Positions 10,311 to 32,930 of a DNA stretch of 33,119 bases are shown piece after piece. The notes under the pieces are model-generated. The model searched no databases. It was not told where the DNA came from and saw only the letters and a list, made by a program, of their open reading frames with translations. This DNA is from a bacterium (GTDB lineage: Bacteria > Zhuqueibacterota > Zhuqueibacteria > Oceanimicrobiales > Oceanimicrobiaceae), in contig JBHHXN010000047.1 in the NCBI GenBank assembly GCA_046757025.1, positions 1-33,119 on the forward strand. Direction: 5' to 3'. Positions within the stretch are counted from its first letter, which is position 1; each line of letters starts with the position of its first letter. The translations under genes and the position numbers were made by a program.

Positions 10311-11732
10311 TCAGTTCTGTTCACAGGTTGCCGCATCCGGGCGTGTTTTGCTGGCGTTGAAATGCTCCTCCACGCGTCCAAATGGCGCCGTGTTCCCGCC
10401 TTCTGGTCGCGGTACATTCAGGGTGACGCCGTTGCTGGTTTGACCGCTGGCATCGGTGATGGTGACCGTGACATCGAAACTGCTTTCGTTTCCGAACAGC
10501 CAGCAGGTTAACACCGTGATCGCGCCTTGAAAACCGTCGCCTGTTATGGTTGGGCTTGAAACCGTAAAGCCGCCGGTCATTCCAGAAGGCAAAGACACCC
10601 AGGAGACATTCACCACGGTGCCGGTAGTCACGCTGCCCTGGGGATGGCTGTAATTTAGCTTGAATTCGAACAAACTTCCCACGGGTCCGTTGAAGATGTT
10701 GCAATTGGTACTGTCGTTTACTTGTAAAAAGGTAGAGACAAAATTGGAAAGAATCGCGCTTTCTACCACCGGTTCCGCTGAACCGACGATGAGCAACTCG
10801 CTGAATCCGCCGGCCTCTGGATTTTGCGGCTCGTTGAGCAGCAGCCGAATGGAGCGGCCCGTAGCCAGCGGCGCCACGTTGACCACTGGCAGGTCTTTCG
10901 ACTGCGGATAGGGCACGGTTTGCTCGAAGCGTTTTTCACCTTTACCGCTCAATTCGCTGAACACCTGGAAAGTGATCGTTCCGAATCCAAAACCATTTTG
11001 ATAGGTCGGATCCGTGTGTCGGGAATTGTTGACGATACCGACGGCGGTGAAAAAGTCGTCCTGGCGGCCGTTCCAAGTAAAGGTGGAGGTGCTGCCATCG
11101 ACGCTAGAGCCGGCCGATAACCAGGACGTGCCGAATTCAAAATCCACGGCCAGCCGCGGCGAGAAATTACCCGGCGAGCGGGTAGAAGACGCCTGAACGG
11201 TACCCGAAGGGGCGACAAGATTTGGGGCTTGCAGAATGATAAACACCGGCTCTTCCACAAACTGTCCCGGCAGCAAAGTGACGATGGCGTCACCCACTAA
11301 AAACAGCAGCTCCTGGCTGTCGGAAGCGGTCACCAGGATTTTGAAACTCTGCTGTTCACCGGTGACCGGAATACTGAGCTCGCCGGAAGCCCGGTTGTTG
11401 GCGATGGTAAGGACTTGCTCTTTGATCACCACGTTGTTGGTGGCCGAATCGAGCACGGAAACGCGAACGTCATCAAATGCGAGGAGCGCGTTGTTGCCGG
11501 TATTCGCGGCAAGCAAACTGCTTTTGTTGTGCAGGCTTTCTGGTGCCTGCTCGAGGTTGTTTGCCAAATGGCTTTTTGTTTCATCGGGAAAAACCAGCTG
11601 CAACGATATCCTGGCATCGGCGAACGGGCTGGTTAATTGGCGATTTTTTTCACAGCTATTAAACGCCGTGACTGTAAAAATCAAAACGGCTGGTAAAAAT
11701 AACCGGGCAAACGGTTTATGCAATTTTCTCAT
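10311..11732 (-). CDS. Beta-rich lipoprotein with discoidin/F5-8C-like central domain (putative surface protein)
   Basis: Lipobox-like TAFNSC after a basic/hydrophobic leader, GAGG RBS; VQASS..RLAVD..TSWLS..RSIRLLL..GFSEL pattern; Ser/Thr/Val/Gly-rich beta domains. Confidence 0.7.
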   Translation of the reverse strand: MRKLHKPFARLFLPAVLIFTVTAFNSCEKNRQLTSPFADARISLQLVFPDETKSHLANNLEQAPESLHNKSSLLAANTGNNALLAFDDVRVSVLDSATNNVVIKEQVLTIANNRASGELSIPVTGEQQSFKILVTASDSQELLFLVGDAIVTLLPGQFVEEPVFIILQAPNLVAPSGTVQASSTRSPGNFSPRLAVDFEFGTSWLSAGSSVDGSTSTFTWNGRQDDFFTAVGIVNNSRHTDPTYQNGFGFGTITFQVFSELSGKGEKRFEQTVPYPQSKDLPVVNVAPLATGRSIRLLLNEPQNPEAGGFSELLIVGSAEPVVESAILSNFVSTFLQVNDSTNCNIFNGPVGSLFEFKLNYSHPQGSVTTGTVVNVSWVSLPSGMTGGFTVSSPTITGDGFQGAITVLTCWLFGNESSFDVTVTITDASGQTSNGVTLNVPRPEGGNTAPFGRVEEHFNASKTRPDAATCEQN

Positions 11733-11812
11733 TTTTTATTTCCTCATAGTTTACTGATCTATTCAAAAAAATCATCCGCTAAAGCTGCACGAAACGGTTG
11801 GCTGCGTTTCCG

Positions 11813-12961
11813 CTAAAATCGAAACGCCAGTCCGCCGCGCAGCTCCAATCCGGTGACATCGACTTCGGTCTGCGGATTGACGTCGATGCTGCCCTTTGAA
11901 TAAATAAATGTCGGGTCAAACGACACGCGGTTGGAAAAGTTCAAAACAAAGCCGCCTCCAAAGCCGTAGATCGTGGCGCCCTCAAAGCCCAGGTCGTTGT
12001 CGCCGTAAAGCTGCGCCTGCGCCACGTACTTCAGGCTAAAGCTGCCGCCCAGCGGCTGAATAAAGGCCGCCCGCAGCTCGACCTCGCTGCCGTTGCTGAT
12101 CAAGCTGGCGTCCATGGTGGTTTCATCGATGCGGTTGTCCGAGCGCCAGCGGTAAATGGCCGAGAGTATGACCGGATTTAAAAAGCCCAGTGGCGCCAGC
12201 AACTGACCGCGCAGGAGGAATTTATCGCCGGCTTCGAAAAAAGGCGCGTCGTTGATTTCATCTTCCCCGTAATTGGTGTAAATGAAGTCAGCCAAAACTT
12301 TTGCCCGGCCGCCGACCATTTCGAATTCTCGTTCCACACCAACCGTGAGGTTGAATTCATTGCCAGGGGCAATTTCAAAATCCTGACCGCTGAGGTTGGC
12401 GTCGTATTTCTGACGCAGGGAAAAACCGACGCCCGCGCCCAGCACCCAGGTGCCCAGCTCCTGCGCCAGCGCCAGGCCGAAATGGTAGCTGAAGCCGGTG
12501 CCAAAATTGGTGACCGGATTGTTCAGGGGGCGGTTGGAAGCGAGCCCGGCGATGGTCATTTCGTCTGCTGTGAGCTCGGTTTCACCGCTGGGAATGCCGA
12601 CTCCAAACGTGAGCAGCGCCAGGTTGTCCCCCACAATGAAAGACGCCCGTACAAAAGTGTCGGTGACGTTGTGAAATTCATCGGTTTTGCCGTTGGGCAG
12701 CTCCTTGATGCCGATAAACGGTGCGGTGGCCACGTCCAGACCGAGACGGGTGCCGAGGGGAAGCGAATACGACACTGGAATTGTAAACTCAGTAAAGCGG
12801 TCCAGGGCTTCGGTGTCGTCAAATGTCCACGACTTAATGTGAAATGTGGGTCGGAAGTGTTGCGAACGAATAAATTCTAACTGATTGATCTGCGCTGGTA
12901 AAATACCAACCAGGCTGCAGAGTAAGAGAGTCAAAGTAACATAAAAATATCGTTGTTTCAT
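11813..12961 (-). CDS. Outer-membrane beta-barrel protein of unknown family
   Basis: Signal peptide, alternating amphipathic Gly/aromatic-rich strands, C-terminal beta-signal GLELRGGLAFRF; GAGGT RBS. Confidence 0.8.
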   Translation of the reverse strand: MKQRYFYVTLTLLLCSLVGILPAQINQLEFIRSQHFRPTFHIKSWTFDDTEALDRFTEFTIPVSYSLPLGTRLGLDVATAPFIGIKELPNGKTDEFHNVTDTFVRASFIVGDNLALLTFGVGIPSGETELTADEMTIAGLASNRPLNNPVTNFGTGFSYHFGLALAQELGTWVLGAGVGFSLRQKYDANLSGQDFEIAPGNEFNLTVGVEREFEMVGGRAKVLADFIYTNYGEDEINDAPFFEAGDKFLLRGQLLAPLGFLNPVILSAIYRWRSDNRIDETTMDASLISNGSEVELRAAFIQPLGGSFSLKYVAQAQLYGDNDLGFEGATIYGFGGGFVLNFSNRVSFDPTFIYSKGSIDVNPQTEVDVTGLELRGGLAFRF

Positions 12962-13132
12962 TTTTTACCTCGTATGGTTAAGCTGTTTAACGAGCCTGAT
13001 TTTCGGAGATTTTTGAGATGGCTGCATCCCGCACAAAACGCGGAAACTGCAAAGACCTCTTTTACCTTTTTTTGAAGATATATTGTGTTTGCTGCCATTC
13101 ATTAAGCATCCGTTTAAAGGAGTATTTTCAAA

Positions 13133-14497
13133 TTATTTATTGCTTGCCGGTGGCAGCGGAATGATGATGGGCACCGTCGCGGTGGTTGGAATCGCCGAAT
13201 CCGTGCCCGTGGCTTCCTGCACCGGTTCCCGGGTGTCGTTATCCCCTTGGGGTGTTTGGCCGGTTTGTGCGGCGTGGCTGGTATTGAACAAACGCGATAC
13301 TTTGCGCAACCCGCCAAAATCTTCAAAGGTAGAATCAAAATCGTTTTCTAACGCCGCTGTTGCAATTTTAGGTTCGCTGGCGGCTTGTTCGGATATCTCC
13401 AAGTCCTCCACGCTTTGTTTGGCCAGCTCAAAATTGGGGTCCAGCGACAGCGCTTTTTCGTATTCCTGTTTGGCGCGATCGAACATGCCGCGGTCTTCAA
13501 AATCCAACCCGCGAGAGTACGCCAGGAACGCCAGTAGATTTTCCGTGGAGATTTTCTCGATGGCTTCTCGTTCCGTCTTCGAAAGCACGATGCCCAGGTC
13601 GGAGATGATGGAAAAAGCCAACTTTTTCTGCATGCGAAAAAGAGTGGGCAATTTGCCGCTCACTTCTTCGACGGGTGATAATTGCGAGGTGGCGGTTTCT
13701 GCTAACGCCGCATCGATGCGGATATTTTCATCGCTGAGCTGGGTGATGCCGCCGCTGACCAGCTTTCGGGCGCCGATGAGTTTGCCCACGCGCGGGGCGG
13801 TGCGGTTGTCCACCAGGCCGGTGCTGCCGAGCTCGAGCTCTTCCAGCAAAGTTTGCAATTTCAACCGTTCCACTACTTTGAGCTGCCTCACTTTTGACAG
13901 GTCGGTGATCAGAATCTGTGCCAGGCCTTTTTGCAGCGGGTCCAGCTCGGAAGCCTGACTGATGTTCCGAAAGTAAAGCACGGCGATGGTGTTTTCTGGA
14001 ATCGCCTCCACGTTCAGGTTCTGCTCCTGCGAAATGGCTGCCGAGATTTCCCGGGCGATTTGCTCGCTGGAAAGTTGTTTAATCCGCCGGGAGATCTCAT
14101 TTCTAAATCCACCCGAACGACTGAGATCACGATAATTTTTGTACTCGTCGATGGCTTCCTTGAGCATATCTTTCGATTCATAAGTTAAGCCCAGATAGAA
14201 AATCGTTTTGCTGTCCCGGGGATTCAATCCTTTGGCCTCCTGAAGCTTGAGCAACGCTTCGTCAAAGCGCCGGGCTTTGAAATAGGTGATCCCCAGCTCG
14301 CGTTTGATGCGGGCGTCAGCGGGCTTTTCTTTTTCCGCCTCCTGAAACAGTCGGATGGCTTCGTTGTAGTCCTTCTTTTGCAGGCTGCTCAAACCGCTGC
14401 TGTAGCGGCTGGCGGTACAGCCCACAAGCCCCGTCAGGCAAAGCGACCAGATAATCATGAGGGCAAATTTACTTCTTTTTTTTATTAATTTATGCAT
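13133..14497 (-). CDS. Lipoprotein, TPR + CsgG/HfaB (FlgO/TolB-N-like) domain + TPR + extended C-terminal tail
   Basis: Start reassigned to ATG 14497 (GGAG RBS); lipobox LVGC; TIAVLYFRN..ITDLSKV..VVER..L..LLEEL..VD..TAPRVGKLIGA motif. Confidence 0.85.
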   Translation of the reverse strand: MHKLIKKRSKFALMIIWSLCLTGLVGCTASRYSSGLSSLQKKDYNEAIRLFQEAEKEKPADARIKRELGITYFKARRFDEALLKLQEAKGLNPRDSKTIFYLGLTYESKDMLKEAIDEYKNYRDLSRSGGFRNEISRRIKQLSSEQIAREISAAISQEQNLNVEAIPENTIAVLYFRNISQASELDPLQKGLAQILITDLSKVRQLKVVERLKLQTLLEELELGSTGLVDNRTAPRVGKLIGARKLVSGGITQLSDENIRIDAALAETATSQLSPVEEVSGKLPTLFRMQKKLAFSIISDLGIVLSKTEREAIEKISTENLLAFLAYSRGLDFEDRGMFDRAKQEYEKALSLDPNFELAKQSVEDLEISEQAASEPKIATAALENDFDSTFEDFGGLRKVSRLFNTSHAAQTGQTPQGDNDTREPVQEATGTDSAIPTTATVPIIIPLPPASNK

Positions 14498-14608
14498 AAT
14501 AAATCTCCAGTTAATATTTGATGAATTTGATTTTTTAGCAGTCGATTCTCCAATGATTGGCCGAAAAGTCAAAAAATGTCATTCTAAGCTTGTGCTCCGA
14601 TTTGGTTT

Positions 14609-14643
14609 AATTCCCAATTCTTAATTCCTAAATTCTAATTCCG
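14609..14643. repeat. Degenerate heptamer tandem repeat
   Basis: aattccc aattctt aattcct aaattct aattccg, between two genes of the cluster. Confidence 0.65.
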
Positions 14644-14667
14644 ACTCATTCACAGAAAATCTAATTT

Positions 14668-15828
14668 TTAAAAAAATGTGCTTCGGTCTTTTTTGGACAA
14701 AACCATGTACTCCAGCTCCGAATTGGACAAACGCCTCTCCGGGAGTCGGGTTACCTTTTGTCGGGCCAGATCAAAATCCGCATCCCGAGCAAGGGCTTGG
14801 CGGTAGTGATGGATGGCCTGGGTAAAATGGCCCTGGTCCTCATAATCCAGACCCTTACAAAAGCCGATAAAAGCTAAATTGCTGCTGGTCACCGGTTTCT
14901 GCAGGGCCGTCTGTTCTTCAAAAGTGGGATTGATTTTCAATTCATCTACCAGCTTAAACAGCAGACGCTTTTGCAGTTGCAGCAGGTCTGCAATGCTGCC
15001 TTCCACACTCACGCCGGCGCCGCTCAATCGACCGCTGCGGGTTTCCACCACACCGGCGGATATCCGGATTCGGGTTTCGCTGATGCGCTCGATGCCGCCG
15101 GTGAGCAGTTGCTTAGCCTGTAAAATTTTACCCACATTTGAAATTTTCATTTTATCGTACAGTTGTGCTACGGAGTAATTTTGCACGGTCAGCAAACTCT
15201 TCAGTTTTTGTCGTGGTACCAGGTGCAGGGTTTTGATTTTAGCCAGATCCAGGGTGAGCGTTTCAGCGAATCCTTTGATGATGGGCGCCAGCTCCCGCCA
15301 TTTCGAAAGGTTGCGGAAATAGATTACTGTCAGTGAATTGCCTGGCAGGCCGGCTGTATCCCCCTTGGTCAGCCGCTGCAAACGCTTCCGAATTTCGGCC
15401 GAATATATTTTGTGTTCGTTTTTTGCAACCCGCACGTAGAGCTCTTTTCGCAGAGAGGACTTGGGTTTCAGTGCGGCCAGGTCTCGGTAAATGGCAGCGG
15501 CTTCGGCATATTTTTTTGCGGATTCGTAACTCATACCCAAAAACAAAAGCGTGGCCGGGTCGGTCGGGTTGATGGCTTTTGCGCGCGTTAATTTTTCAAT
15601 GGCGGCGTTAATTTGCTGAGTTTTAAAGTAAGCGATTCCGAGGTTGCGTTTGATTTTCCAATCGGTAGGTTTTTCGCCTTCACTGACTTTGAGTTTGACG
15701 ATGGCAGAACGATAATCTGCAGATTCAGAAGCAGGGCGCTCAGCCAAGTGCGCCCGATGACCACATGCTGCCACGAGCAGCAGCAAAAAGCCCATCCAGC
15801 GCAAAGCAGTCCTATTTTTATCAGCCAT
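14668..15828 (-). CDS. Lipoprotein, TPR + CsgG/HfaB-like domain (paralog of the downstream gene)
   Basis: Lipobox VAAC; collinear with 13133-14497 (IKRNLGIAYFK vs IKRELGITYFK; YFRNLS vs YFRNIS; KGLDYEDQG vs RGLDFEDRG). Confidence 0.85.
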   Translation of the reverse strand: MADKNRTALRWMGFLLLLVAACGHRAHLAERPASESADYRSAIVKLKVSEGEKPTDWKIKRNLGIAYFKTQQINAAIEKLTRAKAINPTDPATLLFLGMSYESAKKYAEAAAIYRDLAALKPKSSLRKELYVRVAKNEHKIYSAEIRKRLQRLTKGDTAGLPGNSLTVIYFRNLSKWRELAPIIKGFAETLTLDLAKIKTLHLVPRQKLKSLLTVQNYSVAQLYDKMKISNVGKILQAKQLLTGGIERISETRIRISAGVVETRSGRLSGAGVSVEGSIADLLQLQKRLLFKLVDELKINPTFEEQTALQKPVTSSNLAFIGFCKGLDYEDQGHFTQAIHHYRQALARDADFDLARQKVTRLPERRLSNSELEYMVLSKKDRSTFF

Positions 15829-15878
15829 GCTTTAGCCTGATTTTCGGGAAGGGGCGTTCCATGAAAACTCCGGCTCTA

Positions 15879-16916
15879 CTACAAAGTCAGCGGCTTGATA
15901 ACCGACAACATTTCCTGGGCTTTTTGAAAGTTCGGCGCAACAGCCAGAGCCTCTTCCAGTTTCACAAAAGCATCTTTGTAAGCCTCATCATTGGCTTTTG
16001 CCATGGCGTCGCCAAACAGCGCCAGGGCTTCTATGGGGATGTCGTCTTCACCCAATTTGTCCAACTTTTTCCGCTCCGCTTTCTGGATATCCACATCCAG
16101 ATCTTTGGTGATTTTCAGCGTGAGCTTTTTCGCCAGATCGAATATTTTGTCTGGTTTGCCTTCCACCGACGCGGTTTTAAAAATCTCGCCGGTTTCCGTT
16201 TTCACCAACCGCACATCCATGCGGAACGTATCGCCGAGCCGGATGAAACTCCCGAACACAAACGAATGCGCTCCCAGCAATTTCCCGATCCGCGGCGCGT
16301 ATTCCGGATCGACAACGGTCTTGCCGCCGATTTTGGTCTCGGTCAACTTCAGCTCCTCGATGAGAAATTGCAAACGCTCGCGCTCCACCACTTTCAATTT
16401 ACTCAACACCGAAAAATCGCTGATGAGGATTTTTGAAAGCGCGCTGCCAAGGTTGGCATATTTGTCCGCGTCCGTCACCGAGTTGTTCTCGAAATCGATG
16501 ATGGCGATGGTTTTGATTCCCGGTCCCTTGGACTGCAAGCTCAGGGACATGCCGGCTTTTTTCACGGAACGGTAGTAATCGGCCATCAGGCGTTGGTGCG
16601 GCCACCAGCTATCGCTGGGTTTGTAACGGGGCTCCCGATTCAACACCTGTGCAAAGACTTCCTCGGCTTTGATATCCTTGCCGGTGGAAACGTAGGCCAC
16701 CGCCAGATATTCACTGGCTTCGAGATAGTCTTCCTTCGACAGGGTTTTGGTGGCCACCAATCGTTGCAGCAGCTCGATGGATTTTTGAAATTTGCCGTTG
16801 TTAAAAAGTTGAATCGCCTCCTGCAGCTCCATGTTTTTTTCACCGGCTTGTGCAAAGCAATTTAACAGCAGCACAGCGGTAATAATGGTGACAAACCACC
16901 TCGTTGATTTAACCAT
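15879..16916 (-). CDS. Periplasmic TPR + CsgG/HfaB-like domain protein
   Basis: AAGGAG RBS, Sec signal (..FAQA); TIAIIDFENN..LISDFS..VVERERLQFLIEEL..VDPEYAPRIGKLLGA..GSF..RLVKTETGEI. Confidence 0.87.
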   Translation of the reverse strand: MVKSTRWFVTIITAVLLLNCFAQAGEKNMELQEAIQLFNNGKFQKSIELLQRLVATKTLSKEDYLEASEYLAVAYVSTGKDIKAEEVFAQVLNREPRYKPSDSWWPHQRLMADYYRSVKKAGMSLSLQSKGPGIKTIAIIDFENNSVTDADKYANLGSALSKILISDFSVLSKLKVVERERLQFLIEELKLTETKIGGKTVVDPEYAPRIGKLLGAHSFVFGSFIRLGDTFRMDVRLVKTETGEIFKTASVEGKPDKIFDLAKKLTLKITKDLDVDIQKAERKKLDKLGEDDIPIEALALFGDAMAKANDEAYKDAFVKLEEALAVAPNFQKAQEMLSVIKPLTL

Positions 16917-17026
16917 TTTTTACTCCTTCATTTAGTTTATTTTATAGGTGGATAACACGACCCTGTGTGTCAGTCGGGAAATACCCGTTGGCAAGATTAG
17001 CGTGTTTTCACACTGGTTTAAAAAAG

Positions 17027-17149
17027 CTTGTTCCCAAACTCCAGTTTGGGAACAAAATTGTATGAGAAACTTTGTTTCTTCTCTCTAAATCGGTCATTCG
17101 AAACAGATTTTTCCACACTTGCGTTCCAAAATAGAAATTTTGGAACGAG
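17027..17149. repeat. REP/REPIN-like composite palindromic element
   Basis: TTGTTCCCAAACTCCAGTTTGGGAACAA hairpin, inner GAAAC..GTTTC motifs and a second hairpin CGTTCCAAAAT..ATTTTGGAACG. Confidence 0.75.
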
Positions 17150-17398
17150 AACGCGGTGGAAAATATGGCAGAAATTGCTCATTTAATCCTTAAGTTGACG
17201 CAAAAACGCCTTGCGGTACAGGCTGGAAGCATCTTGTAAATAAACAGCGTTTCCGCAAAATCAAAAAAACTCTTTATGCATGACAAGAACCGCAGATTTG
17301 GACTTTTATACGGTCTCTTAAGATTGAACACCTAAAACAAGAACAGTCTGGAAAATACCTGTGCAAAACGCTCAGGCAGGCGGTTTCCAGGAATACAT

Positions 17399-19267
17399 TT
17401 AATTTTTTATGAATACAAATTTCACGGTTTCTTCGGCACCGCTCAGGACAACTATTTTTTGCTGCTCCTTTTGTGCGGCGTATCCGAACATTTTGGCGCT
17501 GATCTCGTAAACGCCTTTTTTTAAAGACAACGATTTAGGGGTTTGCCCGTATGCCTTGCCGTCGATAAAAATATTGGCCACGGCCATCGTTTCGGCGCCT
17601 TCTGCGAGGGTCACAGCCAGCACCGTGAGGGTGCCGTGCGGCTCCTCCTGCAAATTGAAATTCAGGTTTTTTTCTACGCCGCTTTCGATTTGTACTTGTG
17701 AACTTTTCTCCACAAACCCGGCTAAGTTCACTCGAATGTCGTGTGCGCCCGCCGGCAGATCGGTAAACTTGTGCGGCGTTTGAAAATTCGTAGCGCTGCC
17801 GTTTAGGTAGATGCGCGCACCGCGTGGATTTGAATCGACGAAGATACTGCCAATCGGGTGTGCCATTTCATCGGAAGAAGATTGCGTTTCCTTGTTTGTG
17901 TGCGCGATGGCCGGTTTTTCTTCAATTTTACTTTCACTGGCGGGTTTTTGGGCGGAAGTCGGCAAAGCAACCAGTTGAATAGCGGTCGCCAGTGTGTCAT
18001 TTTCCGCAATGGTGAAATCCTTTGACCAGACTTCAAATCCTTTCAAGGTTAATGAAACCGAGTGCAAACCGCTGCTTACCGGGCCAACCGTTGCCGGCGT
18101 GGTTGCTTCCGTGGATTTGCCGTTTAAAAATATCAACGCGCCTGGCGGCGTGGAATCCAGTTTCAGGTAACCGACGTCCGCTGTGAACAGACTTTTGATT
18201 TTTGGGTAACTAATGATCGCCACGACGATCAAGATCGCCGTAAGGACCAGCGGAACAATCATCCGGCTCTTGCTCGCTGTCGGTTTTGCAGGCGTTTCGC
18301 GCACCCTGGGAATCGTTCGCTGAGCGTCGGCGTTGTGCGGTTTGGTCTGCTGCGCTGAAGGTGTCTTCGCGACCGGTTTGTCCCGCATCACCACGGTGTT
18401 GACGTCGTCGGTTTCGAAGCTGCGAGTGGGACGAATCGTTTTTAAATCCGTCAACATTTTTTGCACCGAGTCATATCGCTGGTCCACCTCTTTGGCAATG
18501 GCCTTGTGAATAATCCGCTCAAGCGCCGGCGGGACGTCGTGGTTCAACTCGGTCATGGGCACAGGAGCTTCGTTTACGATGTTGTACAGCATGGACATTT
18601 CGTTGTCGCCGGCAAAGGGCAGCTTGCCGGTCAAAAGCTCGTAGAGCATGACTCCCAAAGACCAGATATCGCTGCGGTGATCGATGTCCTGCCCGCGCAC
18701 CTGTTCCGGCGACATGTACGCCGGCGTGCCCATGGTCGTGCCCGCTTGTGTGATGCGGGTGGCGTTACCGAGCTTGGCCAAGCCGAAATCGACAATTTTG
18801 ACGAAACCGTCTTTGGTGATGATGATGTTGGCGGGTTTGACATCGCGGTGCACGATGCCGCGCTCGTGCGCCTTGGCCAGACCGCTGCCGATCTGCTGGA
18901 CAAAATGAACCGCCTCCTCCACAGAGACGATCCCTCCTGCCATGCGATCTTTCAGAGTATGCCCATCGTAGTAGGCCATGGCGATGAACATTTCGCCGGC
19001 GGCGGTTTCATCGACTTCGTAGATGGTGCCGATGCGGGGATGATCCAGCGCGGAGGCCGCCTGCGCTTCATGCATGAAACGTTTCTTGGTTTCCTCATCA
19101 CTGACCAAATTCGGCTGCAAAAACTTTAACGCCACCGTGCGTTTCAGGTTGATGTCTTCCGCCATATACACCATGCCCATGCCGCCGCCGCCCAGGTAAC
19201 GAATAACTTTATAGTGCGAAATAATCTTGCCGATTCTTGGATCATTCTGCGTCAACGAGCTCTCCAA
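17399..19267 (-). CDS. Membrane Hanks-type Ser/Thr protein kinase with three PEGA domains
   Basis: [58 protein letters not shown]; repeats [40 protein letters not shown]. Confidence 0.95.
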
Positions 19268-19612
19268 TGATATTTTGTTTTCTTTAAAGTAAATACTACT
19301 TGTTCAGTAGAAAAGAATAAAAGACTGGCAATTGTATTTTTAGAATGCAATGTTAACAGACCACAAAGGATAGAGACACTTTGAGTGGATTTCAGAATAC
19401 GGTTACATTTTTTGAAATAATATTGTAATTATCAAAAAGTTAATAACTTGATGAAAAGATGCAAGGATTTTTTCTATTCAATTAATTTGCTTCGGCGCTT
19501 ACAGCGCCAACATCGACAATTTTTTGTCGATATGTTTAAGTATCGAAACTCGAATATCGAAACCAATTTGCGGAATGAAGAACGAGGATGGAGCAATGAG
19601 CATGCGATTTGG

Positions 19613-21815: not shown

Positions 21816-21844
21816 CGATCAAACAGATTTGATGAGGGGAAAAA

Positions 21845-24808: not shown

Positions 24809-24984
24809 TAGAAAACACACGCGAAAGCGTCTGTGTGAAAACGAAACGCAAGCATCTTGCTTGCGAGAATGCATTTGCAAAGAACAAAAGAATTTAGCAA
24901 AAAGAATTGACCTGTTTTAACAAGCCAGAGACTTGTTTTACCCTGTTTTCACACAAGTTCTCAAGCCAGAACCTCCGAAATCGT

Positions 24985-25851
24985 ATGCAGACAAAACAAA
25001 ATCTCAAAGCAGGCCTGGATCCCCAAAGGGCCATCGCCCTCATCACCGGGGGCGGCGGAAAGATCGCTGAAGCCGTTGCAGGAAATCTGGATGAGCTGGG
25101 CTATGGACTCATTCTGGTGGATATCAGCCAGAAAAGCCTGGCGCGTGTGGCCGCGCAACTTACTCAAATTCCCATCTTGATTCAATGCGATCTTTCGCGG
25201 CCGGCTGAAATGCAGAAGTTGCTCGCTCGCGTTGAATCTGAATATTCGGCCATTCAGGTGCTCATTAACTGCGCCGGTTATATTCAACCCGGAGAATTAG
25301 TTGATTTACGCGCAGAAGAAATCGACAAGCATCTGCAAGTCAACCTGGCCAGTGTGATGCAGCTCACGCGCGGCGTCGCCGCTTTGATGAAAGCGCGAAA
25401 ACGCGGTCACATCATCACGCTTATTTCCATGGGCGGCATTATCGCGCTGGCGGGCAGCGCCTGTTATTCGGCTACCAAATTCGGGCTGCGCGGTTTTAAT
25501 CATGCTTTACACATCGAGCTAAAGCCCCACAACGTGCAGGTGTGCGGGGTGTTTCCTTCGGCGGTGGATACGCCGATGCTGCAGCACGAGATCGAGCACC
25601 ATGGCTCGGCGCTCAATTTTGTGGGCGCGGTGCAAAATCCTGAGAAAGTCGCGCAAAAAGTCATGCTGGCGCTGCGTTGCAATAAAGTCGAAATCTACGT
25701 ACCGTACGCAGGCAGTTTGTCGGCGCGGCTGCTGGCCGCCTGCCCCGGGCTATTCACACGATTGTACCCGCTGCTGGAGTGGATAGGTAAAAAGGGGCGA
25801 CAGAAATACCTTCAGCAGTGCAAACGCAAGTTGGTTCATTCAACAAATTGA
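24985..25851 (+). CDS. Short-chain dehydrogenase/reductase
   Basis: TGGGGKIA (variant Gly motif), NCAG, YSATK, PSAVDT; ATG 24985 preferred over TTG 24907. Confidence 0.88.
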   Translation: MQTKQNLKAGLDPQRAIALITGGGGKIAEAVAGNLDELGYGLILVDISQKSLARVAAQLTQIPILIQCDLSRPAEMQKLLARVESEYSAIQVLINCAGYIQPGELVDLRAEEIDKHLQVNLASVMQLTRGVAALMKARKRGHIITLISMGGIIALAGSACYSATKFGLRGFNHALHIELKPHNVQVCGVFPSAVDTPMLQHEIEHHGSALNFVGAVQNPEKVAQKVMLALRCNKVEIYVPYAGSLSARLLAACPGLFTRLYPLLEWIGKKGRQKYLQQCKRKLVHSTN

Positions 25852-25873
25852 CAAAAAAAGAGACGTTGCGCAA

Positions 25874-26341
25874 ATGGAAAGAAGTATCAAAATCATCGCT
25901 ATTTTACATGGCACCACCGCCGTGGGTATCGTGATCTTCTGGATAGGATTTTACAATGGAGTCCTTTTTCCAGTGGCGTTCATGCGTTCAAAAATCGCCC
26001 ATTTCGACGGTTATTACGCCTGGGAAACCGCTTTCACCATTCCGGACATGTTACTCGCCAGCGCCATGATGTTTGCCAGCGTACGATTGCTAAAAAACCA
26101 AAATGACCAGACGGCGGTATATATTTTACTTTCCGCTTCCGGCGCCCTGATCTTTCTGGGTCTGCTGGATTTTGTTTACGACCTCGGCAATGGCATGTAC
26201 CGATTACATCATTTTTACTCGTACCTGCTGTTGTTGATCGGCGTGTGTTTACCCATTCTGGGATTGGTCTCAATTTTTGTTTTGAACAAACATAGCCGGC
26301 AGCTAAACCTAAAAAAGGAGCCCAAAGCATGGCAAAATTAG
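25874..26341 (+). CDS. Small four-TM membrane protein of unknown function
   Basis: 155 aa, four hydrophobic segments, WETAFTIPD motif; overlaps the start of the next gene. Confidence 0.8.
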   Translation: MERSIKIIAILHGTTAVGIVIFWIGFYNGVLFPVAFMRSKIAHFDGYYAWETAFTIPDMLLASAMMFASVRLLKNQNDQTAVYILLSASGALIFLGLLDFVYDLGNGMYRLHHFYSYLLLLIGVCLPILGLVSIFVLNKHSRQLNLKKEPKAWQN

Positions 26342-27855
26342 ATCGTTTGGATAACTGTCTTTCCACCCGCGAAGGGCATCTGTTTGTGGAAGAATGCGAT
26401 ACGGTGGAGCTCGTCAAGCAATTCGGTTCTCCGCTGTGGGTGGTCTCGGAGGATCAGTTGCGCAGAAACCTCCGCCGTTTTCAAATCGCTTTTCAAAAAG
26501 GCTGGCCAGACGGGCCAGTGAAAGTCATGCCGGCAGTGAAAGCAAGCTGGGTTTCGGCGGTGCAGAGAATTATAGCCGCCGAAGGGTGCGGCTGCGACAT
26601 CTATTCGCCGGGAGAATTGACCATCGCGCTGCAGGCCGGCTTCGACCCGCAATTCATCTCGGTCAACGGCGTGCCCAAGCCGGCGGAGCACATTTACCGC
26701 TGCGTCAAAGAAGGGGTGCGCCTCACCATCGACAGCGTGGAGGAGGTGGACGTCATCGAGCAGGCAGCCAGGGCTCTGAAAAAAACCGCAAAAGTTCGAC
26801 TGCGGCTCAAGCCAGCGCTGTCGGAATTCACCGACCACAGCGATTTTGTGGCAGAAGGATTCGTTCCAACTGACATCGCAGCTCTGGCTTACAAAGGCGG
26901 CCTTTCCACAGAGGAGGTGCTGAAAATTGCGCAAAGACTCATCAAAATGAAGAACGTCAAGCTGGTTGGATTTCATCAGCATCACGGCCGGCACCATCGT
27001 TCCACCGACTACTGGCGGGCACAGATGCGTGCTTACGCAAAGGAGATGGGCAAAGTGGCGCAAGCGCTGGGTGGCTACCAGCCGCAGGAAATCGACATCG
27101 GCGGCGGCTTTGCCATTCCCCGGGATCCGCACAATGCTGCTACCGATTACAGCGAACCCGTGCAACTGGCGGCGCTGCACACCCTCTCCAAAGGCCTGCG
27201 GCTGCTGGGAGAGGAGCGGCGGTACAAGGTTTTGTCGCGGCTGCTGGAATCGTTTGCCATGTTTCCCAATCAAACCGCCGCGCCGGAGATCGAAGAATAT
27301 GCTGAAGTCTGTACCGGCACCTTACGCCAGGAACTGCCGCGACACGGCATCGAGACCAGAGGCATGATGCTGCAGCTTGAACCAGGGCGAAGCTTACATG
27401 GCAACACCGGCATCCATCTGACCACGGTGTGCAATCTCAAACGCATGACTTCCCCTATTAAGTGGCACCAGGTGATCGTGGACACCACGGAGTTCTGGCT
27501 CACCGGCGGTCGTTACGAGCATCATTTACACGATTATGTCTTTGCGAATAAAACAAATGCCGAAATGGTGGACAAAGCAGACGTCATCGGCGCCAGTTGT
27601 TTTGGCGACCGCGTGCTGCCCACCGTGGCCATTCCCGAAGTGGAGGTGGGCGATATTCTGGCCCTGCTGGACACGGGTGCGTACCAGGAAGTCTCCATGA
27701 GCAACTTCAACGCCATGCCGCGACCGGCGACGGTGCTGGTGACCGGCGCCAGCGCCAGCCTCATTCGCCAGCGCGAAACCGAAGCCGACGTCATCAAGCG
27801 GGATGTCATCCCGGAGCACTTGGAGAGAAAAAAGACCGTGGAAGTGTCCGATTGA
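26329..27855 (+). CDS. PLP-dependent group IV (Orn/DAP/Arg) decarboxylase, LysA-like but non-canonical
   Basis: PAVKAS (PLP lysine), SPGE, HQHHG, DIGGG, EPGR, GASCFGD, GAY..SNFN..RPA; AAGGAG RBS. Confidence 0.88.
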   Translation: MAKLDRLDNCLSTREGHLFVEECDTVELVKQFGSPLWVVSEDQLRRNLRRFQIAFQKGWPDGPVKVMPAVKASWVSAVQRIIAAEGCGCDIYSPGELTIALQAGFDPQFISVNGVPKPAEHIYRCVKEGVRLTIDSVEEVDVIEQAARALKKTAKVRLRLKPALSEFTDHSDFVAEGFVPTDIAALAYKGGLSTEEVLKIAQRLIKMKNVKLVGFHQHHGRHHRSTDYWRAQMRAYAKEMGKVAQALGGYQPQEIDIGGGFAIPRDPHNAATDYSEPVQLAALHTLSKGLRLLGEERRYKVLSRLLESFAMFPNQTAAPEIEEYAEVCTGTLRQELPRHGIETRGMMLQLEPGRSLHGNTGIHLTTVCNLKRMTSPIKWHQVIVDTTEFWLTGGRYEHHLHDYVFANKTNAEMVDKADVIGASCFGDRVLPTVAIPEVEVGDILALLDTGAYQEVSMSNFNAMPRPATVLVTGASASLIRQRETEADVIKRDVIPEHLERKKTVEVSD

Positions 27856-27920
27856 ACATCGTTGCATGTTTATTTCAAGAGGATAATTTGAAGTCAGTTT
27901 AAATCACCCTTATTCAACAT

Positions 27921-27955
27921 AAAAAAGGGAGCCTCAAAGCCATGAGACTCCCTTT
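27921..27955 (-). terminator. Rho-independent terminator between convergent operons (possibly bidirectional)
   Basis: AAAGGGAG..CTCA-AAGCCA-TGAG..CTCCCTTT stem with A6 on the left (U tract on the minus strand). Confidence 0.78.
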
Positions 27956-27974
27956 GCTTGCTCAATGCTTCGCG

Positions 27975-28163
27975 CTATTCCTTCTTGCCCCCTCCGTCAA
28001 TGATCATTTTCGCTGTCAGCAGGATCAAAACGCCGAGATAGAGAAATGAAACGCCAAAAGGCCACAGCGTGCGTGTTGGCGCCACCATATTGGTCAAAAA
28101 TGCCAGCCCTGCAAAGACCACGGTGACAATTAACCACTGGGTAAGATATTTTTGGAAGGTCAT
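27975..28163 (-). CDS. Small two-TM membrane protein (62 aa)
   Basis: AGGAGG RBS well spaced from ATG 28163; two hydrophobic helices; followed by terminator. Confidence 0.75.
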   Translation of the reverse strand: MTFQKYLTQWLIVTVVFAGLAFLTNMVAPTRTLWPFGVSFLYLGVLILLTAKMIIDGGGKKE

Positions 28164-28230
28164 TTTACACACCTCCTGTTTTAGTGAATAATTTGATCAC
28201 TCCCCCATTTTGAACGACATCAACCCCCGG

Positions 28231-29043
28231 TTATCTTTTCAACGCCTGATTGAGTTCGTCTCTGGAAATTCTCTGTGTTTTAGCTAAATCGTCTGTAAGC
28301 AGTTTAATACGCAGCACGATGGCGGTGAGATGGTCGTTGGCGCCTTTCTGGTAGCAGTTTTCTTTGAATATCTGACAAACCAGGTTTAAATCGTGGTGGT
28401 TGTTTTTGAGATTGTCGAGCATTTCTGCTGGCGAGTTGTGATTGTAAATACCATCCGTGCACAGGATGAAAATATCCTCGTTTTTCAGAAGGACTTTCTG
28501 CAGGTCCGGTTCCACCTGCGGCTCCACGCCCAGCGCTTTGGTGATGATATTGGATTGCACGTGCTCGAGATTTTTTCGCTGTTTTTTGGGCAGACTGTCG
28601 AGTATTTTCTGCAACCGGGAATGGTCTTTGGTGAGCTGGTGCAGTTTGTTCTTTCGGTAAACATACACCCGGCTGTCGCCCACATGTCCGATGATGGCAA
28701 AATTTCGTGCAAAGGCCATAAGGGCAATGGTGGAAGCCATTTCGCGCTGTTCCTGCTGCGCCAATTGGTAGATGACTTCGTTGCCTTCCGCGATCAGGCC
28801 TTTTACGAAATCAATCACCATCTCGGAGGAGGCAGACAATTTGGAGCGGTTGTCCAAAGCCTTTTTCTGAATGGCGTTGACCGCGGACTGACTGGCTACG
28901 TCGCCGGCGTAAGCGCCGCCAACCCCGTCGGCAATCGCAAAGATGCGTGCGTCGGGCATCACCAGCAGGCTGTCTTCGTTTACTACTTTTTGAGGATTCA
29001 AACCTCGGTCCGTGATGCTGGCAAATTCAATATCAATCATCAT
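28231..29043 (-). CDS. PP2C/PPM-family Ser/Thr protein phosphatase (Stp1/PstP-like, soluble)
   Basis: NEDS, IADGVGG, HVGDSRVY, LTKDHS, ITKALG, LCTDGI, GANDH; start overlaps the SEDS gene stop. Confidence 0.95.
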   Translation of the reverse strand: MMIDIEFASITDRGLNPQKVVNEDSLLVMPDARIFAIADGVGGAYAGDVASQSAVNAIQKKALDNRSKLSASSEMVIDFVKGLIAEGNEVIYQLAQQEQREMASTIALMAFARNFAIIGHVGDSRVYVYRKNKLHQLTKDHSRLQKILDSLPKKQRKNLEHVQSNIITKALGVEPQVEPDLQKVLLKNEDIFILCTDGIYNHNSPAEMLDNLKNNHHDLNLVCQIFKENCYQKGANDHLTAIVLRIKLLTDDLAKTQRISRDELNQALKR

Positions 29044-30589
29044 ACAATTCAGCCCTTTGCCCGTTTCGGTGCGACAGCCCCATCAAAAATCCGACGATGA
29101 TCAGGGAAATCAGAAATGAAAATCCGCCGCGGCTGATAAACGGCAGGGTGATACCGGTCAGCGGAATCAGCTTGATCACCCCGCCGACATTGACGAAAAC
29201 CTGAATGGCAAGCATGCTGGTAAAACCCACGGCCAGCAATTTTTCAAAATCATTTCTTGAATCCACCACCACGCGCATACCCAGAAAAAATAGCAGTAAA
29301 TAGAGAAAGAGAATCACGGCCGAGCCGGCCAGGCCCAGCTCTTCGGCAATGGCGGCATAGACAAAATCCGACACCACCAGCGGAATGTTGGTTGGGTACC
29401 CCAGACCCAGTCCCGAGCCGCTCCAGGCACCGGCGTTGAGCGCAAAAAAGGAGTTCATGATCTGATAAACGTTGTCCCACCATTTAGCGTCGTGCGGTAA
29501 TTTCCAGATATCAGACCATATCAGGAAGCGCTGTAAAACATGCGTTGGCGCGATGCCTTCGAGCAGCAAAATAAATTTGGAAGTGAGCACCGTGACAGCG
29601 ATGCCGGCAAACAGATAGATGTATTTGCGCGTGATCACAAAAATCATGATCACCACCAGTCCGCCGTAGATGATCACCTGTCCGAAATCCTTCAGCAAGA
29701 CAAATAACAGTTGTGGAATCATCCAGATCAGGATGAACGGCCCCCAGGGCAACAGCAACCGCTGCAGTCGTTTGCCTTTTATTTTGGGCGCTTTGCGGGT
29801 GAAATCATCTTTGAAGCGTGCAAAAAATCCGGCCAGAAAAATGATGATGGTGATTTTAAATGCTTCCCAGGGAGTCATTTGATAGACAAACCGGCCGCGC
29901 GTTTTGACTTCGCTTAAAGCGACAAAAACCATGAGTAAAATAATCGTAAGCGTGACCCAGAAAAACGGCCGTGAAAGCGAATCCATGAATTGATTACTCG
30001 AACATTTTTTTACCAGGTAAACCAGTGAAAACAGGGCGATGAGATAGGAAACGATCAATCGTGACCAGCCGGGCAGGTTATCTAAAAATTCCTGCATCAC
30101 CTGACTCAATTTCATTTTTTCCAGGCGCAGTAGTTCCTGCCCTTCCTCCTGAATAGCTTCCAAACTTCTTTCGGCGGCGGTTTTTTCTTTCAGCGTGTCC
30201 GAGACCGCCAGCTCGGCAGTCAGGCTGTCGGTGCTCATTTTCTTCAAAGCCGCAGCGGAATATTGTTTCACCAGAGTTTCCTGAAAATCCACATTGATAG
30301 CGGCGCTGATGCGGTACTGTACCACAAACCCGATGCCGGTGAGCAGCGCCACCACCACCAGAATGGCAAAATCGCCTTTATAATTCTTTTTCAAGATAAA
30401 ATAAATGACCAGGAAAAAACCCATGAGCAAGGCGTTGCGCACCAGCACCGTTATGCTGGGGTCATACCCTCTGGCATTGCCGGCCACATAGACCGAAAGC
30501 ATCCCTAAAATTGAAATCAGGATGGCCAGCGTGATGCCAAATAGGGGATTAATTTTTGGAGTCGTCTTTTTTGACACTATCTGCCTCAA
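29033..30589 (-). CDS. rodA: SEDS family peptidoglycan glycosyltransferase (FtsW/RodA/SpoVE), actinobacterial RodA-like
   Basis: Polytopic; PWEAFK, KDFG, YQI, GSGLGLG, SDFVYAAIAEELG (catalytic Asp), PLTGITLPFISRGG. Start may be GTG 30577. Confidence 0.9.
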   Translation of the reverse strand: MRQIVSKKTTPKINPLFGITLAILISILGMLSVYVAGNARGYDPSITVLVRNALLMGFFLVIYFILKKNYKGDFAILVVVALLTGIGFVVQYRISAAINVDFQETLVKQYSAAALKKMSTDSLTAELAVSDTLKEKTAAERSLEAIQEEGQELLRLEKMKLSQVMQEFLDNLPGWSRLIVSYLIALFSLVYLVKKCSSNQFMDSLSRPFFWVTLTIILLMVFVALSEVKTRGRFVYQMTPWEAFKITIIIFLAGFFARFKDDFTRKAPKIKGKRLQRLLLPWGPFILIWMIPQLLFVLLKDFGQVIIYGGLVVIMIFVITRKYIYLFAGIAVTVLTSKFILLLEGIAPTHVLQRFLIWSDIWKLPHDAKWWDNVYQIMNSFFALNAGAWSGSGLGLGYPTNIPLVVSDFVYAAIAEELGLAGSAVILFLYLLLFFLGMRVVVDSRNDFEKLLAVGFTSMLAIQVFVNVGGVIKLIPLTGITLPFISRGGFSFLISLIIVGFLMGLSHRNGQRAELYDD

Positions 30590-32207
30590 AGTAGCCTAAT
30601 TCATGCGCTTTTAGATAGATCTGTTTGGCAATGGGCGCCGCCGCCGAACCGCCGTAACCCGCGCCTTCCGCCACCACCGCCACCGCTATTTTAGGATTGT
30701 CCACAGGCGCAAACGAAATAAACAACGCGTTGTTGACGATGTTCTTTTTCCAGGTGCCGTCAGCCATTTTTATGGGCTGGTTGATTTCTGCGGTGCCGGT
30801 TTTGCCCGCGGCTTCCACTTCGCTCATGCGCAACCGCCAGGCGGTGCCGCCCTGAGTCCACACCACCTCGCGCATCATCTTCTGCACGGTTTTAGCGGTC
30901 TCTTCCGAAACCACACGATGCCACACCTCTGGCGGCTGGTGCAGCTCCAGTTTGGGTTTCATCAGCACGCCGTTGTTGGCAATGGCTGCGGCAATCAAAG
31001 CTAATTGCAGGGGCGTGGTCAACACTTTTTCCTGCCCGATGCTCGACCAGGCCAGTTCATGGGCGTTTTCGGTGGGCGGAAACGAGCTGCGAAACACCAC
31101 GATGCCTTTTTTCAGCGCTTCGCTGGCGGTGTTCCATTCCACGGGTTGATTAAATCCAAAACGGTAGGCGATGTCGTGCATGAGGGAATCGCCCACGGTC
31201 ACACCCAATCTGGCAAAATAAGCGTTGCTGGATTTTACCAGCGCCCGAGTCATGTCGATGCTGCCGTGACCGCGCCAGACACGGCCGCGTTTGCGGTAGC
31301 TAGCCCGCTCATGATCAAACACCCGTTTTCTGCGCACCCCCGGCGGAAGATAACCGTTGGCGCCGATGGTCCAGACCGGATTCAGCCCCTTTTCAATTGC
31401 GGCACAGGCCACCACCGTTTTAAAGGTGGAGCCGGGCGGGTAACGCCCTTTTAGGGCGCGATTGTACAGCCGCTTGCCTTCTTCATCTTTGACGATCCGC
31501 ACCCAGGCCTCGTCCACGGAAACCGAATCCGGATGAAAACTGGGCGCACTCACCAGCACCAACACGTCGCCGGTAGCCGGCTCGATAGCCACCACCGCGC
31601 CTTTGTTGTCGCCAAAGGCTTCGTAAGCGGTTTTTTGTAGCTCATAATCCAGCGACAGCACGATGTCGTTGCCCAGGGGTTTCACCCGAAAATATTTATT
31701 GTTGATGAAATTATCGTTTTCTTCCGGGCTGTTCCGGGTCCAGCCCATCAATTTTTCGAAATAAAATTTTTCCAGTCCGGATTTATCGCGTTCTACGTCG
31801 GAATAACCGATGAGATGGGAAGTGGCTTCCCCTAAGGGGTAGTATCTTCTTGGCAACTCGTCATCGTTGGGTTGGGTGTAGCCGGCAAAAATTCGGAAAT
31901 CGTCGTGGTGGCGGTCATAAATGGTGCCTTTGATGGTAGTGGCTTCTACGATCCAGGGACGCGGATCGTGCAGCTTTTGGGTCTCTTCAAAATAATCGTT
32001 ATCAATGAAAAGCTGCCAGTAACTCTGGTAGCCAATCAACGTCAGGTAGGCCATCACAAACACCCACAACACCACGGAAATATCTTTTTGCCGGGCGAAT
32101 GAAAACACCCCGCGCAAATTTTTTCGCGCCACCACCAGAATACGAATCAGGTACAGACCCAGGGTGACAAGAAGAAGATACTTTATGATGATGAGTACGA
32201 GCAACAT
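30549..32207 (-). CDS. pbpA: Class B penicillin-binding transpeptidase, PbpA-like
   Basis: KGTIYDR, RYYPLG, GLE, PGSTFK (SxxK), SSN (SxN), KTGTAE; two N-terminal TM segments; short pedestal domain. Confidence 0.92.
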   Translation of the reverse strand: MLLVLIIIKYLLLVTLGLYLIRILVVARKNLRGVFSFARQKDISVVLWVFVMAYLTLIGYQSYWQLFIDNDYFEETQKLHDPRPWIVEATTIKGTIYDRHHDDFRIFAGYTQPNDDELPRRYYPLGEATSHLIGYSDVERDKSGLEKFYFEKLMGWTRNSPEENDNFINNKYFRVKPLGNDIVLSLDYELQKTAYEAFGDNKGAVVAIEPATGDVLVLVSAPSFHPDSVSVDEAWVRIVKDEEGKRLYNRALKGRYPPGSTFKTVVACAAIEKGLNPVWTIGANGYLPPGVRRKRVFDHERASYRKRGRVWRGHGSIDMTRALVKSSNAYFARLGVTVGDSLMHDIAYRFGFNQPVEWNTASEALKKGIVVFRSSFPPTENAHELAWSSIGQEKVLTTPLQLALIAAAIANNGVLMKPKLELHQPPEVWHRVVSEETAKTVQKMMREVVWTQGGTAWRLRMSEVEAAGKTGTAEINQPIKMADGTWKKNIVNNALFISFAPVDNPKIAVAVVAEGAGYGGSAAAPIAKQIYLKAHELGYFEADSVKKDDSKN

Positions 32208-32213
32208 CTGCGA

Positions 32214-32930
32214 TCACTCGGCTGTAAAGGTCATGATGATGGGATCTAATTTGCAAAAGCGGATTTTATCCCCAATGGAAATTTCCCGGCGGCCTTTGAT
32301 GGGAGCGTCTTCGTCGTTGATGTAGGTGCCGTTGGTGCTGCCTTCGTCCACCAGCGTGATTTTGTCCTTCGAAACAAAATGAAGGCTTGCCTGATTTTTG
32401 GAAATTTTTTCGAATGGCAAACAGATTTCGGCGCTGGAAACGCGGCCGATTTGATATTTGGTTCCGGGGGTTAAGTACCACTTCAGTCCTTTGCCCTCGC
32501 CATCGATCACCGTCAAACGAATTTTGGCCGCTTCTTTCGGGGACTCGTCCTCCTCTTCTGGAGTGGAGAACCAGCAGCGAATATCGGCTTTGTGTTTGGA
32601 AATGGTGGCGGAGGAGTTGATCTGCAGTTTGATCTTGGGACGCGGTAATTCGTAATCTTTCTCGGCCACGTATTTTTGCAGACGATCGATCATGACCGTC
32701 TCTAACTTTTTGATGGCATGCGCGTGTTTGATGAACACCGTATTGTTGACCAGGACGTCGTAATTGTCGGGCGCCATGAGCTGCTCCGGATCGTGAGCGT
32801 CGAGATTTCTGTCCAGTTTGTCGATCAATTCTCCATACAACCTTTCTTGCTCCAGCGGATCGATGAACCACCAGAAAATGGAAAACAACATTTTGCGAAT
32901 GCCGTGGTCGATACGTCGAATTAGACTCAT
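32214..32930 (-). CDS. fhaA: FhaA-like protein (DUF3662-like N-terminal domain + C-terminal FHA)
   Basis: APDNYDVLVN..LQKYVAEKDYEL..KIKLQI resembles the FhaA N-domain; FHA motifs IGR, ISKNQA, DEGSTNGTYIN, GDKI. Confidence 0.8.
   Translation of the reverse strand: MSLIRRIDHGIRKMLFSIFWWFIDPLEQERLYGELIDKLDRNLDAHDPEQLMAPDNYDVLVNNTVFIKHAHAIKKLETVMIDRLQKYVAEKDYELPRPKIKLQINSSATISKHKADIRCWFSTPEEEDESPKEAAKIRLTVIDGEGKGLKWYLTPGTKYQIGRVSSAEICLPFEKISKNQASLHFVSKDKITLVDEGSTNGTYINDEDAPIKGRREISIGDKIRFCKLDPIIMTFTAE

Follow-up and report, generated by a model that had tools for sequence, protein, structure and literature searches.

Two probably separable modules, a candidate surface-display module and an accessory SEDS/bPBP module, at an envelope locus of a KSB1 bacterium

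The window analysed here is the whole stretch of 33,119 nucleotides (nt) of GenBank contig JBHHXN010000047.1. It is a complete contig (C47) of a KSB1 bacterium, whose genome (G000) has 5.96 Mb and is 95% complete. Positions 10311..32930 encode kinases, a phosphatase, peptidoglycan enzymes, TPR proteins, lipoproteins and an outer-membrane beta-barrel. The initial annotation had read these genes as one phospho-regulated envelope machine, and all the components that it named are in place, with intact catalytic motifs. We lean towards the view that the region consists of two separable modules, often side by side and joined at the lytic transglycosylase gene mltD, and is not one obligate machine. 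The modules are called A (10311..19267) and B (28231..32930, together with a fhaA gene on contig C92). Their main genes and features, with lengths in amino acids (aa), transmembrane helices (TM) and the predicted local distance difference test score (pLDDT) of the models, are as follows.

10311..11732, minus: lipoprotein, Cys27; model pLDDT 72.8; CBM32-fold match
11813..12961, minus: unnamed outer-membrane beta-barrel, 16 strands, C-terminal Phe; model pLDDT 75.2; no NCBIfam family
13133..14572, minus: TPR + TolB_N/CsgG-like + TPR lipoprotein with conserved tail, core of module A; likely start Met26 at 14497; Cys52 invariant
13214..13294, minus: conserved tail segment of that protein, residues 427-453; present in both module types; putative barrel plug
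13151..13180, minus: its C-terminal amphipathic strand, residues 465-474; putative donor strand
14668..15828, minus: second TPR + TolB_N/CsgG-like lipoprotein, Cys22, no tail; missing from some copies (G009)
15879..16916, minus: exported TPR + TolB_N/CsgG-like protein, 345 aa; follows the kinase gene
17399..19267, minus: Hanks kinase, TM 336-354, three PEGA repeats, front end of module A; HRD and DFG intact
23306..24808, plus: MltD-type lytic transglycosylase, SLT + LysM, N-terminal TM anchor; domain match, E121 intact; between A and B
28231..29043, minus: PP2C phosphatase, soluble (without TM); motifs intact
29033..30589, minus: SEDS glycosyltransferase, third of the genome (D408); below the rodA, ftsW and spoVE cut-offs
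30549..32207, minus: class B penicillin-binding protein (bPBP), putatively of the PbpA-like type; no PBP_dimer match; most next relatives with PF21922
32214..32930, minus: FhaA_N + FHA protein; preceded by a paralogue on contig C92, 18839-19690

Transcription in the region has three directions. Module A is read on the minus strand, starting with the PEGA kinase gene and ending with the lipoprotein gene; a second kinase gene, mltD and the genes up to a LysA-like one are on the plus strand; and module B, from FHA to PP2C, is again on the minus strand. Strong hairpins lie 3′ of the module A lipoprotein gene and 3′ of the PP2C gene. Promoter scans of the window gave results near chance, and no tRNA was found in the window.

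Linkage of the two modules

Distribution was profiled across 133 KSB1 genomes, each at least 85% complete; related genomes are kin and not independent, so all genome counts given here are descriptive. The 345-aa protein of module A has a close orthologue in 15 of the 133 genomes, and ten of these have module B. Within the family, ten genomes carry both modules, three only A, three only B and one neither, and 9.9 would be expected to carry both. This co-occurrence at chance level (10/17) speaks against the claim of one system. In addition, module A with its kinase was seen directly without B in seven genomes (G008, G010, G017, G022, G037, G055 and G058), and seven genomes have B without a close A orthologue.

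With regard to position, A adjoins mltD in seven genomes (G000, G004, G009, G011, G012, G013 and G014), and A, mltD and B are contiguous in G000 and G004, in the latter without intervening genes. B stands apart from A, among unrelated genes, in G005, G009, G011, G012 and G014; among the ten genomes with both modules, B is clearly elsewhere in five and the linkage is undecided in three. In four genomes, B has moved but mltD is still with A. Joins between contig ends were detected for G000 and G014, and none for G002, G006, G013, G018 and G057. In addition, the module A lipoprotein P0005 and the module B bPBP P0032 both list a longest contig of 63,523 nt, perhaps from a further genome in which the two modules are linked.

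The mltD gene itself follows module B. Its orthologue was found in 15 of the 133 genomes, all of them among the 17 that carry the SEDS orthologue, and this nesting includes four genomes in three other families. In the two SEDS genomes without an MltD match (G002 and G015), the contig ends right after B. MltD and B share a contig in G000, G004, G006, G018, G019, G027, G052 and G123 and in loci L052, L054 and L062, and they lie apart in G001, G005, G009, G011, G012 and G014. The window protein and the eight orthologues inspected have an N-terminal TM helix and no lipobox. By its inheritance, MltD can be assigned to module B, although physically it lies between A and B. The clustering pointed out in the initial annotation is thus more than an accident of G000: MltD tracks the SEDS/bPBP block, and the junctions of A with mltD recur.

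We infer that A and B lay together ancestrally and that this neighbourhood is freely broken up. They were probably adjacent in the family ancestor, and they may share phospho-signalling, but neither needs the other. A closer union should also be weighed. A, MltD and B might form one facultative trans-envelope circuit in the family, in which a cue sensed by the surface lipoprotein leads to phosphorylation by the PEGA kinase, the signal is read and reset by FhaA and PP2C, and SEDS/bPBP and MltD remodel the wall locally. The contiguous copies in G000 and G004 and the four genomes in which mltD remained with A would fit such a circuit, and so would the lack of an own kinase gene directly upstream of B in G000. 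The seven A-mltD adjacencies and the coupling of another CsgG-like/outer-membrane protein (OMP) set to B in G027 also weigh against our reading and favour more coupling. However, co-occurrence is at chance level and each module is found without the other, different kinases flank B elsewhere, and mltD and the kinase gene are divergent, so that shared upstream DNA could explain their retention. Thus, we regard the single circuit as unlikely. The single-machine reading is partly supported: the modules are in part independently distributed and B resembles a described locus, yet the junctions recur.

At the other extreme, these might be common genes brought together by chance in a genome rich in kinases, and the local insert and the accessory genes could also point this way. 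This view is largely refuted and can hardly be credited, since gene order within both blocks is kept across genera, all genomes with MltD are among those with B, and the A-mltD and mltD-B junctions recur. The kinase query matches 24 contigs of G000 (the PP2C query matches two), so two kinases within 23 kb would be weak evidence alone.

Module A and its surface lipoprotein

The barrel family of module A was found in 88 of the 133 genomes. We mapped 67 barrel loci and sorted them by gene order, the tails having already been seen beforehand; 29 were of type I and 21 of type II, and 17 were left out for contig ends, missed open reading frames (ORFs) or rearrangement. Type I loci have the order TPR lipoprotein-barrel-lipoprotein. 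Type II loci have a giant protein beside the barrel, usually with a C-terminal domain of the FlgD/type IX secretion system (T9SS) type, and no lipoprotein of the module A family. The conserved tail segment of the TPR lipoprotein is kept in both types. However, a terminal amphipathic strand is found in 29/29 type I tails and in 1/21 type II tails, which have proline-run ends, against 15% of shuffled type I tails. In type II loci L082-L129 (for example L086, L087 and L126), the TPR lipoprotein tail is proline-rich and the cargo consists of giant Ig-repeat, FG-GAP or LRR proteins. The type II layout is joined to a PEGA-kinase front end in G010.

The lipoprotein model begins with a first strand (residues 39-47) and a disordered loop (51-83), followed by six further strands to about residue 166. 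This seven-strand N-domain is followed by a CBM32/discoidin fold at residues 169-320 (CBM32 2v72, Z 12.5, root-mean-square deviation (rmsd) 2.6, 124 residues aligned) and a beta-sandwich at the C-terminus. What follows the N-domain differs from locus to locus and may be Big_2 repeats, PEGA, LamG or nothing; many partner lipoproteins consist of the N-domain alone (177-201 aa) or have Ig repeats. An [LM]xK motif is present in the loop behind the first strand in 17 of the 29 type I lipoproteins (shuffled mean 4.6), and K or R in 27/29 loops. Furthermore, the similarity of cognate anchor and tail strands in a fixed register was 146 vs 78 (p 0.0014).

The correlation between the tail strand and the lipoprotein suggests that the TPR lipoprotein tethers the surface lipoprotein by a donated strand. 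In three genomes (G032, G037 and G058), a large protein and a lipoprotein both follow the barrel, and the terminal strand, judged by eye, is kept. Several points weigh against this tether. The two types represent one split on the barrel tree, so that 29/29 vs 1/21 is not independent evidence; the tail-strand split is one evolutionary event maintained under divergence and not 50 tests. The register-free test of cognate anchor and tail similarity failed (p 0.07; within clades 0.30), shuffled tails reaching up to 375 against 350 observed. The lipoprotein loop of the window has a Lys but lacks [LM]xK, and loci L089 and L111, both among those left out of the sorting, have the barrel and the lipoprotein with no CsgG-like gene detected upstream. 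The look-alikes of the N-domain in a predicted-structure atlas are Bacteroidota lipoproteins, with 16% Mfa2 in one cluster (template modelling score 0.58), which would suit the tether, but these matches (0.57-0.62) are below the bar for a name.

Taking these results together, we consider that the TPR lipoprotein, the barrel and the lipoprotein probably belong to one surface-display complex. The TPR lipoprotein would sit on the periplasmic face, where its conserved tail would thread through or plug the barrel. Its last strand might then replace the first strand of the surface lipoprotein, as in the strand exchange of type V pilins; by analogy, such an exchange is possible, but we hold it only tentatively. 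Where a kinase is present, the remaining TPR/TolB_N proteins would link the complex to its PEGA ectodomain. Module A likely displays a variable lipoprotein on the surface and would signal inward through the PEGA kinase.

In type V pilins, a donor strand takes the place of the anchor strand once the loop behind it has been cleaved, and the sorting step of these pilins is called unknown, in the available parts of one account (PMC13655056). Module A resembles the type V pili (Fim/Mfa) of Bacteroidia, as far as that text goes, in its lipobox, first anchor strand, loop with a basic residue and beta-sandwich (PMC13655056), cleavage being putative here. G000 also encodes two C25 peptidases and SprA, and C25 proteases are a further point in common. 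However, the lipoprotein of A has neither the pilin C-terminal domain nor a donor strand of its own that we could see; the candidate donor strand is on the separate TPR lipoprotein, a dedicated barrel is co-encoded, and there is no sign of polymerisation. Tandem transthyretin-like domains, as in type V pilins, were not found: the second domain of A has a CBM32 fold and is absent in single-domain members. The N-domain profile gave nothing significant against PDB sequences. No type V pilin was among the matches of whole-lipoprotein fold searches, which were filled by CBM32 and other domains and barely tested the N-domain.

A Slam-like translocon is the best-surviving alternative. In this case the barrel would pass the lipoprotein, still lipid-anchored, to the surface, and the TPR lipoprotein would be only a plug or chaperone whose last strand binds the substrate transiently or binds the barrel. 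In the Slam domain layout as generally understood, the barrel has 14 strands. By comparison, the barrel of A is unrelated, has 16 strands in the model and shows no TPR fusion and no Pfam or NCBIfam Slam match, and its TPRs are on separate lipoproteins with a TolB_N-like domain. The presence of an outer-membrane barrel, TPR repeats and an adjacent lipoprotein does echo Slam and the type XI secretion system (T11SS), going by the accessible text (PMC13721041). Weak TPR_Slam matches below the cut-off and the lack of robustness in the cognate-strand test also fit a translocon. However, the barrel and the TPRs are not on one polypeptide, members of this barrel family serve giant secreted proteins in the type II loci, and simple export would not need a conserved basic motif in a disordered loop. 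We rate the translocon as a real but minor possibility, well short of even.

The barrel model has 16 strands by count and starts at residue 35. Its fold matches are generic, with 8-10% identity: CdiB is best (Z 19.4, rmsd 3.8, 294 residues aligned, 8% identity), and the sugar channels CymA (Z 18.0) and OprB have similar scores. These channels, like the CBM32 fold, would suit an uptake or ligand-sensing channel, in which a glycan would be bound by the CBM32-type lipoprotein and let in through the barrel past the plug, with the kinase as reporter. This explanation is improbable, as many partner lipoproteins are bare N-domains or carry Ig repeats, and no sugar-utilisation genes are conserved among the neighbours scanned. 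The similarity to Omp85/TpsB proteins is one of fold only, no POTRA being found in the model or by Pfam. Unnamed look-alike clusters of the barrel occur in Gemmatimonadota, Zixibacteria and Ignavibacteriota.

The three TPR proteins had been annotated as CsgG-like. All three genes are indeed present, but their CsgG-like domains match only positions 9-103 of 210 of the CsgG profile and lack both hairpin insertions, which the full-length CsgG-like protein of G000 has. Thus, they are unlikely to be pores, and a role as CsgG-type pores was rejected. They share with curli CsgG and holdfast HfaB the N-terminal half of the Pfam profile; however, both transmembrane hairpins of CsgG are missing, and no curlin or Csg partners were found among the window proteins. 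The domains also match TolB_N weakly, a family which we take to be related to CsgG, and are best read, from their sequences, as periplasmic TolB_N-like domains. Against PDB sequences, the TPR lipoprotein matches mainly TPR-repeat proteins among the matches listed.

A lipoprotein segment threaded through a barrel lumen and information passed across the outer membrane would also be common to module A and RcsF-OMP, according to the available part of one source (PMC4942254). However, the barrel of A is a dedicated one, a third partner is at the surface, and a Hanks kinase stands in place of a phosphorelay. Among the window proteins scanned, no core genes of the type VI secretion system (T6SS) were found, with one weak TssQ TPR match below the cut-off; the genome itself was not searched. 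A literature search, in which most subscription journals and supplements were not covered, yielded no account of either module A or a KSB1 version of module B. Module A is apparently undescribed, and as far as it could be compared it does not qualify as a curli, Slam, Omp85 or type V pilus system.

The full picture, which we think doubtful, would make A a new trans-envelope device of KSB1 and related phyla. The tail would pass through the barrel, the donated strand would capture the proteolytically matured surface protein as a plug-in tether for interchangeable adhesin or sensor heads, and the whole would be wired through the TPR/TolB_N proteins to a PEGA kinase that, in this family, also drives the actinobacterial-type SEDS/bPBP/MltD kit.

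Module B and accessory genes

Module B keeps the order fhaA-fhaA-bPBP-SEDS-PP2C wherever contigs allow, with about 70% identity in SEDS and bPBP. The second FhaA-type gene falls immediately beyond the window, on contig C92 (55-nt overlap with C47), and both FHA proteins carry FhaA_N. The motifs of bPBP (S260xxK, S326xN and K469TG) and of PP2C are intact, and D408 of SEDS is invariant in 13 aligned rows. No TM helix was found in the window PP2C or in six orthologues. A canonical rodA and an ftsW-like gene are elsewhere in G000, so module B is a third SEDS/bPBP pair. The SEDS orthologue was found in 17/133 genomes. For the window bPBP, no dimer domain was scored, and M. tuberculosis PbpA matches with E 2e-33, MrdA scoring higher; most of its next relatives, including clostridial and Kiritimatiellae proteins, carry the PBPA dimerisation domain PF21922.

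The fhaA-fhaB-pstP-rodA-pbpA-pknA-pknB locus of actinobacteria and firmicutes is described in the accessible text of one paper (PMC6554272), and such a pair is noted as extra to the canonical elongation and division pairs in the accessible text of another (PMC12516126). As far as these texts go, module B is like that locus in having two FHA genes with FhaA_N, PP2C, SEDS and a bPBP, putatively PbpA-type, in one block, with kinases usually nearby (PMC6554272, PMC12516126). However, B is found in a diderm host and in another gene order, both of its FHA proteins are FhaA-type and soluble, and its PP2C lacks the TM of the transmembrane PstP. B also lacks a PASTA kinase, has a variable kinase partner and is co-inherited with a TM-anchored MltD. 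Gene content and domains identify module B as a diderm variant of the actinobacterial fhaA-fhaB-pstP-rodA-pbpA-pkn locus. The novelty of the whole region, as first proposed, stands in that no named system of its composition was found in the literature, but not for B, which is a variant of a known locus.

The kinase beside B differs: a CHASE2 kinase is upstream in G057, and G027 and G052 have tandem kinases ahead of mltD. No PASTA kinase was found; the window kinases have PEGA or TPR, and the linked kinases scanned elsewhere have CHASE2, TPR or tandem kinase domains. Module B likely rebuilds the wall under kinase/phosphorylation control. SEDS and bPBP would insert new wall, the membrane-anchored MltD would trim or terminate the strands they make, and the FhaA-type readers and PP2C would gate synthesis under whichever kinase is available, as the different flanking kinases indicate.

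Several observations concern single copies of B. The two fhaA genes are about 0.5 kb apart in G000, unlike most relatives (C92 19690-20076 and window 32931-33119), with a hairpin and a short ORF between them that we take, unconfirmed, to encode a four-helix bundle. The genome G057 (L045) has a second, divergent copy with 37-41% identity; an FtsK-like gene, two PP2C genes and two kinases are also in this locus, with an N-acetylmuramoyl-L-alanine amidase where other copies have MltD nearby. In G027 (L040:1813-6731), module B is directly preceded, in the same direction, by another kind of CsgG-like gene, a gene for an OMP beta-barrel and three unknown genes. A metagenome scan with distant bPBPs kept 80 of 586 loci, of which 44 of at least 9 kb were mapped; these were mostly canonical-looking pbp2-rodA and Gram-positive PbpA-type clusters. 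A barrel or CsgG-like gene was found in 0/44 and an MltD-like gene in 1/44, a scan that says little on the KSB1 variant.

Between and beside the modules are three further features.

20154..21815, plus: Hanks kinase, cytoplasmic TPR, TM 437-455, one weak PEGA; HRD and DFG intact; C-terminal half in 4/133 genomes
21845..22915, plus: exported TPR protein, 356 aa; close relatives only in G011 and G014
24907..27855, plus: SDR, small membrane protein and LysA-like decarboxylase; local insert between mltD and PP2C

The second kinase (kin553) had been counted as part of the system, but with its C-terminal half so rarely found, it and the 356-aa TPR protein were rejected as core parts and are rare add-ons. 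The SDR/small membrane protein/LysA-like trio was rejected too, as a local insert: it had no match at E<=1e-20 in the loci compared. The decarboxylase has 508 aa (57% GC vs 47% in the genome) and a second paralogue on C82. In G011 and G014, the second kinase gene and the TPR gene are separated by a FadL/PorV/BamG-like barrel gene (L021:16532-17812; L029:11217-12500), which had no match in G000. Within module A, insertions collect in the gaps between the TPR/CsgG-like genes, namely a DarT-DarG pair in G011 and a DUF1828/DUF1829 gene in G002 (L022:3795-5496; L047:2191-4142). In two genomes, module A directly follows an alpha-2-macroglobulin/PBP1C pair (L071:12036-19856, by Pfam; L091, by the same gene sizes). 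Just past module A, window 8134-9568 has two overlapping ORFs, one with an HExxH motif and the other with a FlgD/T9SS-type C-terminal domain, which look like a single frameshifted secreted peptidase gene.

Meaning for the KSB1 bacteria

The placing and holding of lipoproteins on the surface of diderms outside Proteobacteria is largely open, and module A offers a concrete three-protein candidate. Its barrel is present in two thirds of the KSB1 genomes searched, and its look-alikes extend to Gemmatimonadota, Zixibacteria and Ignavibacteriota. In addition, the label "CsgG/HfaB family" on such proteins does not imply a pore. In module B, the phospho-regulated SEDS/bPBP locus known from actinobacteria serves a Gram-negative lineage as an accessory third pair and comes with a lytic transglycosylase of its own. 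If the trans-envelope device outlined above is true, surface contact would trigger local wall remodelling in these bacteria.

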